The notes under the pieces: generated by a model
What the model saw: the letters and a program-made list of their open reading frames with translations, nothing else
Databases searched by the model: none
Told to the model about the DNA's origin: nothing
In this document: one piece after another, positions 52,539 to 61,042 of the stretch
How positions within the stretch are numbered: position 1 is the stretch's first letter
Layout of the letters: the number at the start of each line of letters is the position of its first letter
Position numbers and translations under genes: made by a program
DNA from: a phage
Sequence record: OZ335959.1
DNA: 64,000 nucleotides
Reading direction: 5' to 3' (one strand)

Positions 52539-52717
52539 TTAGAAATAGACTTTTCACCATTAGAATAATAAACTTCGAGTTTAGCACGATTATTTTTAAT
52601 TTGAATAACCTTGGCTGTCATCAAAGTTCCATACCCATAGTAAACTGCAACCTCATCACCTACATATACCGCGCTTCCGCGGTAGTCATGGATATAATCA
52701 GTTCCTTCGAGCATCAT
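52502..52717 (-). CDS. Hypothetical protein, 71 aa
   Basis: Track ORF. Confidence 0.45.
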   Translation of the reverse strand: MMLEGTDYIHDYRGSAVYVGDEVAVYYGYGTLMTAKVIQIKNNRAKLEVYYSNGEKSISKWKYGDCMVKLG

Positions 52718-52977
52718 TTAAAGTATTCCCGCAATTGGTCAAATCCACCAATATGACTTCCATCAGGAGCAAATACTTGTGGCATTGTCAAACCGATTTG
52801 AGTATCACGACCTAGTTTCGTCAGAAGCTCAGCGATTTTCTCATCATCAAAAACACCTTTTTCCGGCATAATGTTGATAAATTCAAACGGCTGTTTCTTT
52901 ACAGTCAAAAGACGTTTTGCATTATCGCAATACACACATTTATGGATGTTGCTATCATAACCATATACTTTAAACAT
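52714..52977 (-). CDS. nrdC: Thioredoxin/glutaredoxin NrdC
   Basis: 87-aa ORF MFKVYGYDSNIHKCVYCDNAKRLLTVKKQPFEFINIMPEKG... with CVYC active site; recognised as T4 NrdC. Confidence 0.9.
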   Translation of the reverse strand: MFKVYGYDSNIHKCVYCDNAKRLLTVKKQPFEFINIMPEKGVFDDEKIAELLTKLGRDTQIGLTMPQVFAPDGSHIGGFDQLREYFK

Positions 52978-53236: not shown

Positions 53237-53525
53237 ATCGGTGTTTGCAATGACGGCATTTATAACGAAGATTACTAGTCTGCCAATGGACTAATTGAAC
53301 CTGTTCAGTACCGCATTCAGGACAATTAGGAACGCTTTTAGAAGCCCTTTCGCGACGTTCAACCATAGCCATAATGGCATCCCAAGCTGGAGGTTTAAAA
53401 TCTAAATCGTCACAACCATGAATCTTTCCACGCATTTCCAGATCGTCTTCTTCACCAGCCATAATAATTTTAATTAGACTGGAATTACTTGAAGCTGCAA
53501 TATCTTCTAATAGACGCTTTTTCAT
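53208..53525 (-). CDS. Zinc-ribbon protein, 105 aa
   Basis: CPECG...CRHC four-cysteine pattern in C-terminal half. Confidence 0.5.
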
Positions 53526-54451
53526 TTCAATACCTCAATAGCATTACGTAAACCATTTGCTTTTGCATTAAGAGCTTTTAACAATTTGGTGTGTTCGGCA
53601 ATCTGGGCTTCAACTTCAATTAAACGAGCATTGAGATATTCACGTTCTTCGCTCAGGTTATCAACCTTTTCTACTTTAGGTTCTTTTACAACTATCTTAT
53701 ATGTATTAGGGTTCTTCAGTTTAATTAGAATGCGTGAACTGTATAACATTGAACCATTATCTTCGGTTTCGTCATACATTTCTACTACGTCCATGATTTT
53801 TAACATCATGCGGAGTTTATAAGACAACGAACGAATAGTTTTGTTGTGCTTATTAATTTCTCTAGAGTTCATGGTGCCAAGATTACGTGAGTAATAATAA
53901 GGAACCTGAATATTAATTAATACTGATGAACCACCTGGCTTATGTGTTACTTCATCAGCAATAACCCAGTCCTTAACATGAACTGTATTTGTACGGTCAT
54001 CGCCTGTGGTAAATAGTTTACGAGCATGCTTAAAAAGCATATTCACTTGGTCATTGAATTGACAAGCGAATTTATCAGCAAATTTAGTTTCAGGAATGGT
54101 AGATAACCAATCAGCCAAATGGGTCTTTTTAACATCGTTAACAATAGTAAATTCAACCAAATCGGTTATAGATGTTGCAGATTTAATGAAGCTCGGCTTC
54201 ATAAAGTTTTTAATGTTATCGCGAGCTACAGTAGAAGATAACATACGAGAACGTTTAAACCATTCAAGCAAATTGCCCAATGAATGAGAATAGGCGTTCT
54301 GAGTATCTTTACAGATATGATTTTCCTGGCCAGCATATTGAAGGAAATCACGAAGAATATTATTGATTACTGCTCTGTGTCCGATCTGATAATTACGGTG
54401 TTTAGTAATAAGACTGTCAAAATAATCAATATAATGTTTACGAGTTTTCAT
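53522..54451 (-). CDS. Hypothetical protein with C-terminal coiled coil, 309 aa
   Basis: Track ORF; last ~45 aa [42 protein letters not shown] heptad-like. Confidence 0.6.
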   Translation of the reverse strand: MKTRKHYIDYFDSLITKHRNYQIGHRAVINNILRDFLQYAGQENHICKDTQNAYSHSLGNLLEWFKRSRMLSSTVARDNIKNFMKPSFIKSATSITDLVEFTIVNDVKKTHLADWLSTIPETKFADKFACQFNDQVNMLFKHARKLFTTGDDRTNTVHVKDWVIADEVTHKPGGSSVLINIQVPYYYSRNLGTMNSREINKHNKTIRSLSYKLRMMLKIMDVVEMYDETEDNGSMLYSSRILIKLKNPNTYKIVVKEPKVEKVDNLSEEREYLNARLIEVEAQIAEHTKLLKALNAKANGLRNAIEVLK

Positions 54452-54503
54452 GTTCTTCTCACTTGATTAATGATTTATACTCCGAGCCATCCTTGGCTTT
54501 AAA

Positions 54504-55505
54504 TTACTTAATTAACTGTAAAGCTTGTTCAAGACGATCCAGACGATTAACAGATTCTTCCCAAATCCTTTTAGCCTGCTCATATTCTTTCTGCGCTTTA
54601 TTAGAAATTTCTAGAGCTTCTTTATAAGCTTTTTCTAGTGCAATAACTTCTGGACGAATTTCTACCGGTTCAGGTGAATCATCAAGACATTCCATTAGTT
54701 CCTCAAGGGTAGTTTCTTCTTTAGGAGTATTCGCAATTTCATCACATTTTTGTTGGTAAATTTCTTTATCAGTCGGCGAGTACGCACATTTCACTTCACG
54801 AAGACTAACTACAATTTTGTATCCTTCCCAACCGCATATATTCTTAAAAGGATAAGTATGAATATTTTCTACTGTTTCCATACAAAGTAGTGCAGTCTCT
54901 AATTGACGAGTTATATCGCTAGCAATTGAGAAAAATTTATTGATGTTCTTTTGATTAGCTTCTGGTGTAAAAAATTCATAATTCACAAAAATAGCTGCTT
55001 TATTTTTATCAAGTTCATATTCTTTTATGATAATCATATCAGAAGCCCAAGGATGAATTTGACGATAATCGCCATAGCATAATTTAGAAGCGGATTTTAT
55101 AATTTGCTTCTTGAAAAGTCTGAAATTACTAACCCAACGACGAGTAAAAATATTCTCAGGGTCTTCTTTATTATTAAGATGATAAGAATTAACATCACCG
55201 AACCAATTATATCCTACTACATTTTTAGTTCGTTTAATTTCTTTCCCAAATTTACCAAGAATATCTTGATTAACTAAATATGAAAGAAGACGAGACCTTT
55301 TAAAGGTTTCCTTAATATCATCTTTATATTCGCGACTAGAAATTTTATGAACTTCATGAATAAATTTGCTCGAAGAAACAATGCTTACATCAATATTATT
55401 GAGCCATTGATTGATAATGGAAATAACGCTATTCTGACTAGACATAGGTTTAACTTTATCATCAATAACGCTATTGAATGATTTGATATATTCGTTACGA
55501 GTCAT
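54504..55505 (-). CDS. Hypothetical protein with C-terminal coiled coil (about 333 aa after trimming)
   Basis: Track ORF 54504-55556 includes the promoter; ATG at 55503-55505 with GAGGAG SD; C-terminus ALEKAYKEALEISNKAQKEYEQAKRIWEESVNRLDRLEQALQLIK. Confidence 0.6.
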   Translation of the reverse strand: MTRNEYIKSFNSVIDDKVKPMSSQNSVISIINQWLNNIDVSIVSSSKFIHEVHKISSREYKDDIKETFKRSRLLSYLVNQDILGKFGKEIKRTKNVVGYNWFGDVNSYHLNNKEDPENIFTRRWVSNFRLFKKQIIKSASKLCYGDYRQIHPWASDMIIIKEYELDKNKAAIFVNYEFFTPEANQKNINKFFSIASDITRQLETALLCMETVENIHTYPFKNICGWEGYKIVVSLREVKCAYSPTDKEIYQQKCDEIANTPKEETTLEELMECLDDSPEPVEIRPEVIALEKAYKEALEISNKAQKEYEQAKRIWEESVNRLDRLEQALQLIK

Positions 55506-55533
55506 ATTAATCTCCTCAGTAGAAAGTAAGAAC

Positions 55534-55563
55534 ATTATACCACATCCTTGTGGCAAAGTAAAC
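55534..55563 (-). promoter_or_regulatory. Early promoter
   Basis: Minus strand GTTTAC, 18 bp, TATAAT (TGTGGTATAAT). Confidence 0.55.
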
Positions 55564-56591
55564 TAGTTTAGTGCATTTAGTGCATTGTTCAGTTTAGAAC
55601 GTTGCTTTGTCAGATTTTGAACCCTTGACTGAGCTTGTTCTAACACCTTTTCAGCTTCTAGCACTTCATTGGTCGCTTTAACGAGTTCATCATCTACTGC
55701 CTTAAGAGACTTCTCAATCGCGTCAGCGTGCCATTTTTCTACAGGTTTAAAATTTGAATTTTCAGTAGGAAGAAAACTCACTTTATTAAGTTTACATGCA
55801 TCTATATTGCTTGAGCTATACATCCAAAATTTAGGATCGTTTGATGAGTAATTGGATAAATTTAAATTTAAGTTATCTTGCACTTCTTGCTTTTTCTCTT
55901 GCGTGACTTCGTCCTTTCTCAAAAAATCGTATTTAAATGAAACGATCATATCAAGTTCATACGTTGTTGTATGTTCCCAATTTCGCTCAAAACGAGGTAA
56001 AATCTTAGACTGAACAGCGGCAACAACATCCATATACTTAAATGCTTCTGTCAACTGTGATTTAAGGCATTCGCAAATTGAAAGAGAATTTTTTGTATTA
56101 GGTTTAAAGCTAATTCGCGCAGTTCTGTTATTTTCTTTTAATGGTCTTACTTCCATCTGAAGAGTATAACCATCAAATTTCAGGTTCTTTAAGTTAATGT
56201 CAGAACCTTTTAATCGACTAGCAGTCGACAAAATTTGCTTTAATTGTCTACGGAACAGAGCAATAAATCTCCATTCAATACGATAATGATTTGGATTGAA
56301 AAATCCAGATGATAAATCGACCTTACTTTGACCAACACCTTGAACAAATAGAGGATTTTTATAATCAATAGTTTTACAGAAATTGGTGAGTTGCTCACGA
56401 GCCGTCATTTGTGTAATATACCCTGCTTTACTAAAATTACTTACCCATTCACTGCTATTTAGATATTTAAAGTGATGAATAGCACGATTAACTTTATCAG
56501 GATCTAAATTATTTTCACACAAAAATGTCATAACATTACGAGTATCGCTGGCAGTACGAACCATATCTTCAATTTGAGAACGAGTTTTCAT
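55563..56591 (-). CDS. Hypothetical protein with C-terminal coiled coil, 342 aa
   Basis: Track ORF; C-terminus DDELVKATNEVLEAEKVLEQAQSRVQNLTKQRSKLNNALNALN. Confidence 0.6.
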   Translation of the reverse strand: MKTRSQIEDMVRTASDTRNVMTFLCENNLDPDKVNRAIHHFKYLNSSEWVSNFSKAGYITQMTAREQLTNFCKTIDYKNPLFVQGVGQSKVDLSSGFFNPNHYRIEWRFIALFRRQLKQILSTASRLKGSDINLKNLKFDGYTLQMEVRPLKENNRTARISFKPNTKNSLSICECLKSQLTEAFKYMDVVAAVQSKILPRFERNWEHTTTYELDMIVSFKYDFLRKDEVTQEKKQEVQDNLNLNLSNYSSNDPKFWMYSSSNIDACKLNKVSFLPTENSNFKPVEKWHADAIEKSLKAVDDELVKATNEVLEAEKVLEQAQSRVQNLTKQRSKLNNALNALN

Positions 56592-56599
56592 GGTATTCC

Positions 56600-57505
56600 T
56601 TAAGATTTAAGTAAATCGACAATTTTAATTAACTTTTCACGCTCAGATTTAGCTTTACTACTCAATCCAGATAGTCTGAAAATTTCATCATCATATTGTT
56701 GAATAGAAATATTCAGCTCTTCAATTTGCTTATTAAAATAATCAATTTGTTCAGAATGTTTTTCATTACTACGAACTGGTACAGGTTTCGTAGGCAATGT
56801 AGTTGAACTGGATTCATCCGGGCGATAAATTAAAATACAACTTGAACCAATAGGGCATTTTGCACCAGATGAATATTCTAATGTTCCGGCTTCTTTTAAA
56901 ACTTCAAAAGCTAAACAGAGATGATGACCCATATTGACATAATCTGTAGAGTGAGCTCTGATATAATAATCAACGCCACGAGTACTAAATTTAAAGCATT
57001 TAAGGTCTTCTGTATTATTGGTCTTAAAAATCATTTGTTTATCTAGACCTTTAGCTAATCGAGCGCCTAATGCTAATAATCGTCTTTGATTTTCCCACAA
57101 ATCCGCAATCATTTGATCGAATGATAATTTTGGCATCAGTCGGCCATAAAGGTCATATCCTTTATTATAATTACGAAGGATTTCACTTGCATTAATACGA
57201 GACAATGCTCCAATTTTATTAAGGGCTTTCATAATGCGATTAGATAAACTCATTCCAGATCCGTTCGTTCGCTGCAAATGTTTTTCTAATCCAAATCCAA
57301 TATCAACTTTAAATTTATCTAAAATTTCGGCATGAACATCTCTGTCAATAACATTCAAATCCAAAGTTGGGTTAAATCTATGAAAAAATTTATCTGGCTC
57401 TCCACGGCGAAATACAGTCCATTCATTCATCATTTTTTTATTAACTAAAGATTTAATTACTGCATTGACATTATTAATTACTACTGACATATTTTCCTCA
57501 CTCAA
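56600..57505 (-). CDS. Hypothetical protein with C-terminal coiled coil, 301 aa
   Basis: Track ORF; C-terminus IDYFNKQIEELNISIQQYDDEIFRLSGLSSKAKSEREKLIKIVDLLKS. Confidence 0.6.
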   Translation of the reverse strand: MSEENMSVVINNVNAVIKSLVNKKMMNEWTVFRRGEPDKFFHRFNPTLDLNVIDRDVHAEILDKFKVDIGFGLEKHLQRTNGSGMSLSNRIMKALNKIGALSRINASEILRNYNKGYDLYGRLMPKLSFDQMIADLWENQRRLLALGARLAKGLDKQMIFKTNNTEDLKCFKFSTRGVDYYIRAHSTDYVNMGHHLCLAFEVLKEAGTLEYSSGAKCPIGSSCILIYRPDESSSTTLPTKPVPVRSNEKHSEQIDYFNKQIEELNISIQQYDDEIFRLSGLSSKAKSEREKLIKIVDLLKS

Positions 57506-57899
57506 TTTTACTAATTACACGAAATAAGATTGAACAGACTATATAAGTACCACATATAGACTGAACTAATGCCATTCCAAAGAACCAAACAATATTATCA
57601 AACCATGTCTGTTTTACGTCGAAAGGACGTAAACTTACAGTAATATTATCGCCTTTTTCTATTGAAGAATACATCTCTGGGGAAATATATTCACTAAATC
57701 TATAGCCGTCTTTAAGTTCATATACGGCAATAAACGATAAACTAGACCCTTTTCCTTGTGTTCCTGTAATGGTATTAACTACAGTAACATCGTAATCTTT
57801 ATAATGCATATAATCATTAATTGCGTAATAACCATATGCAACTACTACACATAAACAACATATCAATAAATTCAATCTTCTAATTATCAACCGTTTCAT
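57498..57899 (-). CDS. Membrane-anchored protein, 133 aa
   Basis: N-terminal TM helix LNLLICCLCVVVAYGYYAI and C-terminal hydrophobic segment. Confidence 0.55.
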   Translation of the reverse strand: MKRLIIRRLNLLICCLCVVVAYGYYAINDYMHYKDYDVTVVNTITGTQGKGSSLSFIAVYELKDGYRFSEYISPEMYSSIEKGDNITVSLRPFDVKQTWFDNIVWFFGMALVQSICGTYIVCSILFRVISKIE

Positions 57900-57954
57900 A
57901 ATAATCTCAATTAAAAGGGCTTAGAACCATTATACCATCCTTGGCATAAAGCGG

Positions 57955-58482
57955 TTATGCGAGTACCGTCTTTAACCGTTCTTCAAACTTCCGAAGAGTA
58001 TTTTGGCGTTCAGCTCTTTGCTTTTTGTAAGTTTCAATACGCTCTGAAATGAGAGAGTATCGTTCATTTACTGATTCTTTCATAAAATCAGGAATTTCAC
58101 GAGAAGCTTTAATCTCGTCAAATTTATCAATAACAGCTTGCTCTTCAGCAATTAAGTTATCATACATTAAAATATCTTTCTTGATGAACTCAATATCTTC
58201 TTGAGTTACACGAGATAATTTAGATGCTTTATCCTTTTTGTACTGTTCGTTAGTATCACGAGACCAGTGTAATGTACGATTTTTATTCGTATTTTTGTAA
58301 ATTTCTACAATACCGATCTCATCAATAATAACGATCCAATTCCAACGGGATTTGTAAATTTGTCCTCCATCAACAGTGATTTCACCTCCGATTGAGATGT
58401 CATTAAAGAACTTGCTTTGCGCTTCAGATTTAAATTTACCATCGTTATAATTTACCAAGTTGAAAATATCTTTAGCGTTCAT
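57955..58482 (-). CDS. Hypothetical protein with C-terminal helical tail, 175 aa
   Basis: Track ORF with own promoter and GGAGG SD; charged helical C-terminus. Confidence 0.55.
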   Translation of the reverse strand: MNAKDIFNLVNYNDGKFKSEAQSKFFNDISIGGEITVDGGQIYKSRWNWIVIIDEIGIVEIYKNTNKNRTLHWSRDTNEQYKKDKASKLSRVTQEDIEFIKKDILMYDNLIAEEQAVIDKFDEIKASREIPDFMKESVNERYSLISERIETYKKQRAERQNTLRKFEERLKTVLA

Positions 58483-58510: not shown

Positions 58511-58540
58511 ATAGTACCACAGAGGAACAGTCTTGTAAAC
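58511..58540 (-). promoter_or_regulatory. Early promoter
   Basis: Minus strand GTTTAC, 18 bp, TACTAT; repeat module family. Confidence 0.55.
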
Positions 58541-58946: not shown

Positions 58947-59915
58947 TTATTTCAGAAGAGTAACCTCAGCAATTTCTTCCCAACCGTTTTTGTCGGTCAT
59001 AATAAAGTCAGCAAGATAAAGAGCAGTACGCAGTGAAACATTGCGTAAACGGTTAACATTAACTTTCATCCATGATAATGCTTTATAAGTTTCTTCATCA
59101 GAAAGACCGCGCTTTTGCATCATGTCAGTTGAAAGAATAACATCTTCAACCCTGACCATAATTTCTTCATTAGTGTGAACACCCAAATCTAAATAAACTG
59201 AGCGGGACACTAATGCTTGTAAATGTGGAGCAAGTTTAGTACCACGGTCTAATTCGCGGTCAATATCAACGTTTGTGATAAAAACAATCGTTCCTTTAAA
59301 TTCAAACTCACGCTCAATGCCTTTTTCTTCTAAGTAAGAAGACGCAGTGCTCCAGCAGACTTTACGGGTCTCTCCAGTGTCCAGAGCGGCTTTTAGAAGA
59401 TTAAGAATGTCCATATCAGAGAAAACATCCACATCATCAATCAAAAGGACAGAATTCTCTTCACGATTATTCCAAAGCTGCTCATAAAGACCAATACCAG
59501 AGATTTTACCATTAATGCTTTTATATTCAATGTATCCAATATCATTTGCTTTATTTAAAGCTTTATCTAAAGAATACGTTTTACCAATACCTGCTGCGCC
59601 AGAGATAATTAATGAACGAATATTTCCGTTAATAATACCATTCGTCATCATTCCCATAACATTAAATCTTTTATTAATGCGGGTTTTCATATCTTCATAC
59701 GATTCTTTAACTTCTTCAACTTTTACACCATCATATGAAATATCTGATTTGTAAACCCAAACACCGCGACGTTTACCGTCAATTTCAACAAAAACTTTAC
59801 CATCTCCTTGTGCATCTACCGGAGCATTATCTGGGAACCATTCGCCTAAGAGCTCAAAAGTTCCAGAGATTTCTTTACCGAAGTAGATACCCTTATTGAT
59901 AGTTACAGTTTTCAT
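58947..59915 (-). CDS. P-loop (AAA+-like) ATPase, about 322 aa
   Basis: Walker A GAAGIGKTYS and Walker B VLLIDDVD; trimmed to ATG at 59913-59915 with GGAG SD. Confidence 0.7.
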   Translation of the reverse strand: MKTVTINKGIYFGKEISGTFELLGEWFPDNAPVDAQGDGKVFVEIDGKRRGVWVYKSDISYDGVKVEEVKESYEDMKTRINKRFNVMGMMTNGIINGNIRSLIISGAAGIGKTYSLDKALNKANDIGYIEYKSINGKISGIGLYEQLWNNREENSVLLIDDVDVFSDMDILNLLKAALDTGETRKVCWSTASSYLEEKGIEREFEFKGTIVFITNVDIDRELDRGTKLAPHLQALVSRSVYLDLGVHTNEEIMVRVEDVILSTDMMQKRGLSDEETYKALSWMKVNVNRLRNVSLRTALYLADFIMTDKNGWEEIAEVTLLK

Positions 59916-59948
59916 TTTATTCTCCAAATCGTATCAGTTGATAGTTGT

Positions 59949-60028: not shown

Positions 60029-61042
60029 TCATTTATAATAACTTCGGTGGTTTTCAAGATAAACCCTCTCAAGGAAGTCATCCCAAAAACCCATGTCTAC
60101 TTTTTGCTGCATACCGTTCTTAGAAGCTTCAATGGATGCTGCTTCTACCTGATCGACCACATCTTCCAAAAACTCTTGAACAGTTTTAAATGGATGTTTA
60201 CCCAACTTCACGTCGAGAATAAATGGAGCATCTTGGAGTGGATAGACTAAGTCACCAGTTTTGTAAATTTCCAATAGTTGGAGTCCACCACGACAAGCAT
60301 GACTCAATGCTTTCCAGTCAATACCTTCATTCGCTTCAGCCTTACGAGCACGTTCACCGTATTCAGCATCTAATTTGTTCAGTGACTGCTTAAGCTCAAT
60401 AAGAGAAAGTGTTGTCTGATATTTACGACCCAACACAGTGTAGAACGTTTGTGGGCCTGTTTTCTCATGATTATGGAATACCCATTCACAAAATTCGTTC
60501 TCTGGAAGACGATGCTTAATATCTTCAACTTTAGTTCGACGTTGCTTAATAGAGCCGTCTTCTTGGTAATCAACCCATTGCTCAGGGATTTGATTAACTA
60601 CTTTCAATACATCACGTAATGCGGCCAAACGAGAACCCTTGACGCCGTATTTAGAAGCTTGCTTGCGAACATATCCTAAATAGGATTTCATGTTAGTCGT
60701 ATAAAAACGAGAACGATTGTCTTGAATAAACTTCCATACATCAGGCAAATCTGATTTAACCACTAGCTCAGGTGGAGTATGGAGCATATCCAATGCTACA
60801 GTTTCACCATCTGCTGCTAATTTAAAGAAATATTTAAGACTGTATAGTTCATGGTCAATATCATCTTTAGTGTTTTTAGATGATGTGTTGTTAGTGTTTT
60901 TACTCATATGCTCTTTAACATTTCCGATAAGAATATCACGAGCAGGAGGAACAAAGATTTCTTTAAAATCTACATCAGATTCTGGAGTAGAAGTTCCATA
61001 AAGATGACTACCAAAATAGCTTTTCATTACTGTTTTCATCAT
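60029..61042 (-). CDS. Polymerase-beta-superfamily nucleotidyltransferase-domain protein, 337 aa
   Basis: N-terminal FGSHLYGTSTPESDVDF fits the hG[GS]x9-13Dh[DE]h NTase signature; C-terminal helical region. Confidence 0.65.
   Translation of the reverse strand: MMKTVMKSYFGSHLYGTSTPESDVDFKEIFVPPARDILIGNVKEHMSKNTNNTSSKNTKDDIDHELYSLKYFFKLAADGETVALDMLHTPPELVVKSDLPDVWKFIQDNRSRFYTTNMKSYLGYVRKQASKYGVKGSRLAALRDVLKVVNQIPEQWVDYQEDGSIKQRRTKVEDIKHRLPENEFCEWVFHNHEKTGPQTFYTVLGRKYQTTLSLIELKQSLNKLDAEYGERARKAEANEGIDWKALSHACRGGLQLLEIYKTGDLVYPLQDAPFILDVKLGKHPFKTVQEFLEDVVDQVEAASIEASKNGMQQKVDMGFWDDFLERVYLENHRSYYK

Follow-up and report, generated by a model that had tools for sequence, protein, structure and literature searches.

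Genes and features of the locus

The sequence analysis was applied to a 64,000-nt stretch of phage DNA (sequence record OZ335959.1; this whole stretch is called the window), with the focus on an array of nrdC-associated genes at 53522 to 58482. The window was Tequatrovirus DNA with a GC content of ~35%; the interval displayed 94-97% DNA identity to many Tequatrovirus genomes and 93.5% to a T4 record, and its open reading frames (ORFs) were named nrdC.3, nrdC.4, nrdC.5, nrdC.6, nrdC.7, and nrdC.8 via an annotated T4 reference, each being located on the minus strand. Four of them (nrdC.3, nrdC.4, nrdC.5, and nrdC.6) are likely to be old, diverged tandem duplicates of one gene, making up an array of oligomeric, direct-binding anti-defense proteins. 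An earlier sequence-only reading of this DNA had placed and sized the genes correctly (309, ~333, 342, 301, and 175 aa), and both tail sequences that it quoted were present. The genes were as follows:

53522..54451, minus strand: nrdC.3 ortholog, array-family member (309 aa; match to phrog_1435 over residues 2-309, E 4e-115)
54504..55505, minus strand: nrdC.4 ortholog, array-family member (333 aa from the ATG at 55505; match to phrog_1435 over residues 1-333, E 3e-165)
55563..56591, minus strand: nrdC.5 ortholog, Pfam DUF7235 (342 aa; PF23882, 400.3 bits; AlphaFold2 [AF2] model)
56600..57490, minus strand: nrdC.6 ortholog, probable distant superfamily member (296 aa from the ATG at 57490; phrog_2257; AF2 model)
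57498..57899, minus strand: nrdC.7 (133 aa; hydrophobic stretches; phrog_2547; predicted membrane protein in the T4 annotation)
57955..58482, minus strand: nrdC.8 (175 aa; phrog_2274)

The PF23882 match covered residues 1-342 of the window nrdC.5 (cut-off 30 bits), and this protein was 92% identical over its full length to T4 NrdC.5 at the syntenic position. The nrdC.6 product matched phrog_2257 over its full length (E 1.5e-151), and PF26899 was found in all its homologs; the nrdC.4 homologs and the nrdC.3/nrdC.4 family carried PF26897. A TTG at 57505 would give nrdC.6 a 301-aa product (56600-57505), but the ATG at 57490 is the more likely start. nrdC.7 interrupted the array and stood outside the paralog family.

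Whole-length homology among nrdC.3, nrdC.4, and nrdC.5, and probably nrdC.6

The products of nrdC.3 and nrdC.4 shared 25% blastp identity over 229 N-terminal residues, both matched phrog_1435 end to end, and their families were aligned by hhalign with 98-99% probability; the nrdC.4 and nrdC.5 families were aligned over the full length and in register, with 54-60% probability and E 1e-4 to 1e-5. The joint alignment of these three displayed common motifs from the N-terminus through the last residue: (i) M-x-T-R; (ii) F-[KR]-x-S-R-x-L-S-x-x-V-x-R-D-x-L-x-x-F-G-K; (iii) an I-L-K-x-A-x-K-L-x-x-G-D-x-R helix; (iv) A-L-x-x-M-x-T-V; and (v) the tail. A local hhalign match of nrdC.3 residues 128-189 to nrdC.5 residues 264-321 (92.9%) was out of register and was treated as an artifact of the four-sequence nrdC.3 alignment, because the global hhalign and MAFFT alignments were in register. 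The sequence comparison thus argues strongly that nrdC.3, nrdC.4, and nrdC.5 constitute one family.

The link to nrdC.6 was more distant. The three-gene profile was enlarged with distant members (285-331 aa, ending ...KLKAAISVLK, ...KLLRAIQALK, and ...ALVNAIKEFK), and its global hhalign comparison with the nrdC.6 family, run without secondary-structure information, gave 83% probability and E 1e-6; the same motifs were paired, in register, and the alignment ended on LLK. In the sequence-only hhalign comparison, the conserved helix in the centre of nrdC.6, its core helix, and its tail were each matched to their counterparts. Taking the sequence profile together with the structure models (see below), nrdC.6 is quite probably a member of the same superfamily.

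Identity between paralogs was 9-26% in the tails and 16-24% in the bodies, and what survived between the paralog tails was the heptad pattern and a terminal motif. Because the tails had diverged along with the bodies, the data point to whole-gene tandem duplication rather than to swappable heads. The sequence-only reading had seen no obvious similarity among the N-terminal regions, and had proposed swappable N-terminal specificity domains on a common tail; neither description fits genes that were homologous along their whole length.

The databases hold PF26897 (NrdC.3/NrdC.4; phrog_1435), PF26899 (NrdC.6; phrog_2257), and DUF7235 apart, whereas the evidence here joins them as one superfamily with a common architecture; the window proteins were ordinary members of PF26897 and PF26899, both of which are families of unknown function. 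A search of the nrdC.3/nrdC.4/nrdC.5 profile against 1.84 billion representative proteins gave 18 hits, of which the seven inspected looked like T4-like phage members or fragments, and nothing in this search hinted at an origin in bacteria or more widely.

C-terminal heptad helices

The last 35 residues of each of 111 non-overlapping window ORFs were scored for heptad periodicity in the best register (hydrophobic a/d positions and polar residues elsewhere rewarded, Pro and Gly penalized), and the scores were compared across the ORFs and with composition-preserving shuffles; the scoring was purpose-written and differs from standard predictors (COILS, MARCOIL, and DeepCoil). A stricter run test recorded the longest stretch in which no more than one a/d position was non-hydrophobic, against 1000 shuffles. 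The helices concerned were as follows:

53525..53635, minus strand: C-terminal heptad helix of nrdC.3 (residues 273-309; rank 2, 36-aa run)
54507..54659, minus strand: C-terminal heptad helix of nrdC.4 (residues 283-333, ending ...RLEQALQLIK; rank 5)
55566..55736, minus strand: C-terminal helix of nrdC.5 (residues 286-342; AF2 helix 286-341; rank 1)
56603..56767, minus strand: C-terminal helices of nrdC.6 (residues 242-272 and 278-295 in 296-aa numbering; kink at SGLSS; ending ...KLIKIVDLLKS)
57958-58062, minus strand: weaker C-terminal heptad-like helix of nrdC.8 (about residues 141-175)

The five tails held ranks 1, 2, 3, 5, and 6 of the 111 ORFs (nrdC.5 first, nrdC.3 second, nrdC.8 third, and nrdC.4 fifth), with z = 2.9-4.7 against the shuffles; some other small window ORFs scored moderately. 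In the run test, nrdC.5 displayed a 53-aa run of 7.5 uninterrupted heptads and nrdC.6 a 32-aa run followed by the SGLSS break and a second helix, each reached by 0/1000 shuffles, while the 36-aa run of nrdC.3 (a/d residues LLVIHLLALIL) and the 33-aa run of nrdC.4 were reached by 29/1000 and 26/1000, respectively. The tail of nrdC.8 showed no significant run (776/1000 shuffles reached it) and had two Arg in core positions. Canonical coiled-coil periodicity beyond composition, in a Pro-free/Gly-poor segment, was thus strong in nrdC.5 and nrdC.6 and moderate in nrdC.3 and nrdC.4. The AF2 models placed a C-terminal helix at residues 286-341 of nrdC.5 (predicted local distance difference test [pLDDT] 81-92) and two helices at residues 242-272 and 278-295 of nrdC.6.

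Within families, column identity was at least as high in the tail as in the body, and the tails were under purifying selection (ratio of nonsynonymous to synonymous substitution rates [dN/dS] 0-0.24). The nrdC.6 tail had a pN of 0 and many invariant residues, and the nrdC.4 tail was kept in homologs at 39-52% overall identity. The terminal motif [KR]-L-x-x-[AIV]-[LIV]-x-x-L-K, at which or at most two residues past which the protein ended in the copies examined, was also found in three distant members (P0233, P0235, and P0239) and across genera.

The finding of heptad-like helical tails therefore holds up strongly in four of the proteins and less strongly in nrdC.8. The claim of charged heptad tails shared by five proteins stands for nrdC.3, nrdC.4, nrdC.5, and nrdC.6, while for nrdC.8 it fails on the stricter run test. 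The heptad pattern suggests that the tails may form coiled coils and make the proteins oligomeric.

Structure models and distant relatives

In the AF2 models of nrdC.5 and nrdC.6 (pLDDT 69 and 78, respectively), the elements followed one another in the same order: the N-terminal region was helical, beta-beta-alpha-beta-beta came next, and a low-confidence linker led to a long helix at the C-terminus. Foldseek searches of BFVD returned two targets that were matched by both models, each aligned over nearly its full length with each model: (i) A0A2Z4QAR2 of Klebsiella phage Mineola (E 1.7e-6 for nrdC.5 and 9.9e-4 for nrdC.6) and (ii) A0A1V0DXL6 of Yersinia phage fHe-Yen9-01 (E 2.8e-4 and 1.1e-3, respectively). 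The fHe-Yen9-01 gp111 protein had 313 aa, a length equal to that of target A0A1V0DXL6.

The uncharacterized Straboviridae proteins of ~300-370 aa that resembled nrdC.5 and/or nrdC.6 over the full length by Foldseek included, besides the Mineola protein, A0A2S1GM98 of Erwinia phage Cronus, fHe-Yen9-01 gp111 and gp94, and proteins of Acinetobacter phages Acj9 and Acj61. These relatives differed from the array proteins in having just 10-17% identity to them, and the fHe-Yen9-01 genes also differed in place relative to the nrdC.10 and nrdC.2 homologs, gp111 being located upstream of the nrdC.10 homolog and gp94 ~5 kb downstream of it. Both fHe-Yen9-01 proteins harbored heptad tails (...FIRALTALDAI in gp111 and ...KLQESLRTLK in gp94), and gp94 scored weakly against both hidden Markov models (HMMs) and was aligned in register to nrdC.3.

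PDB sequence searches with profiles A1 and A2 and with nrdC.8 found nothing significant, searches of Pfam beyond DUF7235 and of NCBIfam gave sub-threshold noise only, and none of the fold matches pointed to a biochemical mechanism.

Variation of the array across phages

The array was compared for presence and absence across T4-like phages, a check that had been suggested along with the first description of the interval. In the loci examined, it lay between nrdC.8 and nrdC.2, with the order 6-5-4-3 kept and with one to four copies: (i) four copies in most Tequatrovirus loci; (ii) three copies (nrdC.6, an nrdC.5-like gene, and nrdC.4) in JS10 (Dhakavirus) and six IMG/VR loci of the same layout; (iii) two or three copies (nrdC.6, with or without an nrdC.5-like gene, and nrdC.3) in Mosigvirus; and (iv) one intact copy in ACG-C40 (L004, NC_019399, 8805-9216), where a deletion ran from about residue 72 of nrdC.5 to about residue 238 of nrdC.3. 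Protein P0056 was an in-frame nrdC.5::nrdC.3 deletion fusion.

Single members were also disrupted by frameshifts. nrdC.4 was split by a frameshift in locus L012 (9054-10086), and the T4 reference (L001, AF158101, 10067-10894) lacked 1 nt in nrdC.6 (GAGCTG-ATATT) compared with window 56600-56760, a frameshift by which the product was shortened to 275 aa and lost its coiled-coil tail, the tail being intact in another frame. A 295-aa nrdC.6 product with an intact tail was found in four other fetched T4-like loci (L003, L004, L009, and L010), and nrdC.6 of another T4 stock was annotated at 891 nt.

The window nrdC.3 product had 61% aa identity to the T4 copy and represented a different allele. DNA identity to T4 was 0.55-0.65 in the nrdC.3 centre (window 53600-54300), compared with 0.8-0.99 in the nrdC.3 ends and neighboring genes and 93-99% in the flanking genes; this pattern looks like recombinational cassette replacement of the centre, and both nrdC.3 allele classes were common among Tequatrovirus genomes. 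The paralogs had dN/dS of 0.13-0.37, versus 0.02 for nrdC.8 and nrdC.10.

One metagenomic ENA contig, k141_89665 (L007, 803 bp), encoded a 173-aa protein (P0237) composed of a 115-aa foreign N-terminus joined in frame to an nrdC.5-type tail; the tail had ~86% aa identity to that of nrdC.5, the shared DNA was 94% identical, and nrdC.4 was located directly downstream. The P0237 N-terminus had no match in the window, the fetched loci, or 50,697 phage records, and P0237 reflects either genuine head swapping or a chimeric assembly. Modularity exists in a weaker form, as alleles of the central part of nrdC.3 and this one contig.

nrdC.8 and neighboring genes

nrdC.8 was a separate, far more conserved family, merely sharing an amphipathic C-terminal helix with the array proteins. 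Its comparison with each array family gave an hhalign probability of at most 1.2% and no HMM cross-hit; 341 phage records contained it at 99% identity or more, its dN/dS was 0.02, and each of the three genera examined carried it, in every case immediately upstream of the paralog array. The suggestion of one five-protein family accordingly holds for nrdC.3, nrdC.4, nrdC.5, and nrdC.6 and not for nrdC.8, to which no relation was detectable in these comparisons. A tblastn search with nrdC.8 returned Escherichia, Shigella, Yersinia, and Salmonella phages as the leading organism names, with no Klebsiella among them. The nrdC.5 model weakly hit a 175-aa KPV15 protein (E 0.017), for which no connection to nrdC.8 could be established. 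In one paper (PMC13275509), nrdC.8 was mislabeled as a nucleotide reductase.

Further features of the locus were as follows:

52714-52977: nrdC (thioredoxin gene), downstream of the array
55534..55562, minus strand: early-promoter-like site upstream of nrdC.4 (TTTACT, 17-nt spacer, TATAAT, with TG; consensus match only)
58511..58539, minus strand: early-promoter-like site upstream of nrdC.8 (TTTACA, 17-nt spacer, TACTAT, with TG; consensus match only)

Both promoter-like sites carried an extended -10 element, and as consensus matches they are in line with the earlier statement that at least two genes have their own early promoter; the sequences are consistent with early transcription. The promoter-like site of nrdC.4, being located downstream of an alternative ATG (55535), supports the 333-aa start.

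The homologs of nrdC.1-nrdC.11 were tagged 'thioredoxin' in many GenBank and RAST annotations. A Pfam scan found no thioredoxin domain in nrdC.3-nrdC.11, and the T4 annotation gave thioredoxin for nrdC only; most likely, the label had spread from the gene symbol nrdC.N. Two genes were both conserved beside the array: nrdC.10 (58947-59927), with weak, sub-cut-off similarity to P-loop AAA and STAND-like ATPase families, and nrdC.11 (60029-61042), an RlaP/pol-beta-type nucleotidyltransferase. A strong terminator (hairpin plus T-run) was located at 60027-60008 (minus strand), directly after nrdC.11.

Anti-defense context

The array sits in a stretch of T4-type genomes that is rich in anti-defense genes: among adjacent T4 genes, gp49.2 inhibits OLD and nrdC.1 inhibits Septu. 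NrdC.5 itself has been reported as an anti-Dsr1 factor: when plasmid-expressed on its own, T4 nrdC.5 allowed a T4 deletion clone to plate again on cells with dsr1, the SIR2 defense gene of ECOR17 (Srikant, Guegler and Laub 2022; PMC9391042). The early guess of an anti-defense role for these genes is in line with this literature. Anti-Dsr1 activity was shown for the T4 protein, which the window nrdC.5 resembles in sequence (92%), DUF7235 match, and genomic position; the window ortholog was assigned by sequence. For nrdC.3, nrdC.4, nrdC.5, nrdC.6, and nrdC.8, the sole functional report in the literature searched was that of T4 nrdC.5 against Dsr1, and these searches gave no account of the paralog family and no mechanism or structure for NrdC.5. 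A T4 transposon screen listed nrdC.3 to nrdC.8 as all non-essential. In a 2026 preprint, the Dsr1 sensor was described as a TPR domain recognizing the major capsid protein.

The analog proposed for NrdC.5 was DSAD1, a small phage protein that neutralizes the sensor-plus-SIR2 NADase defense protein DSR2. The target differs, being DSR2 and not Dsr1, and binding of NrdC.5 to Dsr1 is a proposal by analogy. DSAD1 is reported to act by direct binding to the DSR2 sensor region and not enzymatically. General searches, which included no direct comparison, surfaced no sequence or fold relation of DSAD1 to the array proteins.

Proposed explanation and alternatives

A single ancestral gene would have been duplicated in tandem, giving rise to nrdC.3, nrdC.4, nrdC.5, and nrdC.6. 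The common layout would be that of the modeled nrdC.5 and nrdC.6, in which a helical N-terminal region precedes the beta-beta-alpha-beta-beta core and a flexible linker connects this core to an amphipathic heptad helix of 35-55 residues; nrdC.3 and nrdC.4 are given the same layout via their full-length homology. The paralogs may be expressed early, each binding a host immune or host-range target stoichiometrically and without enzymatic action; the fast-evolving globular part would set target specificity, and the tail would oligomerize the protein through a coiled coil specific to each paralog and thereby provide avidity against oligomeric defense proteins. Alternatively, the tail itself may dock on the target. 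By analogy with DSAD1 and DSR2, NrdC.5 would bind Dsr1.

Because their paralog nrdC.5 is already known to defeat Dsr1, nrdC.3, nrdC.4, and nrdC.6 are candidates for anti-defense proteins, and they too may act by direct binding. The array also bears an arms-race signature, since its genes were non-essential, variable in copy number and allele, faster evolving, and located among proven anti-defense genes.

Five points weigh against this explanation: (i) the functional evidence was limited to nrdC.5, was obtained for the T4 ortholog, and came without a published mechanism; (ii) the link of nrdC.6 was weak by sequence alone (local hhalign 30%, marginal HMM scores); (iii) the nrdC.5 and nrdC.6 models had only moderate pLDDT, and their likeness is one of element order and not of direct superposition; (iv) the AF2 predictions were of monomers only, and an amphipathic heptad helix may also pack against the protein's own domain or against a binding partner; and (v) the rows retrieved from the HIDEN-SEQ supplement, for whichever condition they refer to, held no significant fitness effect for nrdC.3-nrdC.8.

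A bolder form of the explanation is held only tentatively. In it, the whole superfamily, including the Straboviridae relatives, would consist of oligomeric anti-sensor proteins, with each paralog neutralizing a separate immune receptor of the host; the TPR sensor of Dsr1 would be blocked by NrdC.5, the coiled coil and its L-x-x-A-L-x-x-L-K motif would be a shared oligomerization/docking device, the replaceable centre would determine specificity, and the arsenal would diversify by duplication and cassette exchange.

Four other explanations were weighed. The proteins may be non-immune modulators for host takeover or host physiology, acting on host transcription, the nucleoid, or a membrane, with an indirect effect of nrdC.5 on Dsr1. 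The early expression signals (consensus matches), the lack of a recognizable domain, and the lack of any reported defense role beyond nrdC.5/Dsr1, along with the lack of a significant effect in the HIDEN-SEQ rows retrieved, would all suit such modulators; yet the genes were non-essential and variable in copy number and allele, evolved faster than their neighbors, and were embedded among proven anti-defense genes, which makes this explanation unlikely.

Slightly less probable again is that the paralogs, possibly together with nrdC.8, hetero-oligomerize via their tails, forming one complex of several subunits that serves a single function. Co-location, co-orientation, and a conserved order beside the always-present nrdC.8 could be read in this way, as could a terminal motif common to all members, but a complex of this kind is hard to reconcile with a paralog number of one to four among phages, with the toleration of frameshifted or deleted single members, and with the restoration of infection by the deletion phage on dsr1+ cells by nrdC.5 alone in trans (PMC9391042); the strong divergence between paralog tails likewise fits self-specific over mutual pairing.

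The shuffling of unrelated N-terminal specificity domains onto one common oligomerization tail, as in polymorphic or modular effectors, is improbable. It draws on the heptad helix that ended all five proteins, on P0237 (L007), which joined an unrelated 115-aa N-terminus to an nrdC.5-type tail, on nrdC.3 alleles that varied chiefly in the centre with their ends conserved, and on nrdC.8, which paired an unrelated body with a helical tail. Against this, the bodies of nrdC.3, nrdC.4, nrdC.5, and nrdC.6 were homologous throughout, with one topology and common fold hits for the modeled nrdC.5 and nrdC.6, the paralog tails were no more alike than the bodies, and the P0237 contig was a single short assembly that could be chimeric, its N-terminus having no match in the phage collection.

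Finally, the idea that the tails arose by chance or from composition in an AT-rich genome with K-, E-, N-, I-, and L-rich proteins, and have no specific role, found some footing in the ~35% GC content and the moderate heptad scores of other small ORFs but was effectively refuted, as one 5-kb cluster held all but one of the six highest scores of the 111 ORFs, composition-keeping shuffles rarely matched the observed periodicity, and the tails were conserved across genera under purifying selection.

Meaning of the array

The genes and the T4 nrdC.5 phenotype were known already. New relative to the literature searched are (i) the joining of DUF7235, PF26897, and PF26899 as one tandem-duplicated superfamily with a C-terminal coiled-coil motif and (ii) its fold-level relatives in other Straboviridae. 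The products of nrdC.3, nrdC.4, and nrdC.6 are thereby candidate phage anti-defense proteins rather than a system of a new kind. In practical terms the gain is modest, as the genes were known beforehand and the mechanism is a proposal. Even in T4, the most thoroughly studied of the large lytic phages, the array genes are listed as hypothetical, in three families of unknown function. If they form one family with one proven Dsr1 antagonist, each genome would offer three more testable anti-defense candidates, together with the T4-like relatives, and the tail and the terminal motif would be obvious targets for mutagenesis. The array would then illustrate how an anti-defense repertoire grows, by tandem duplication followed by allele replacement.

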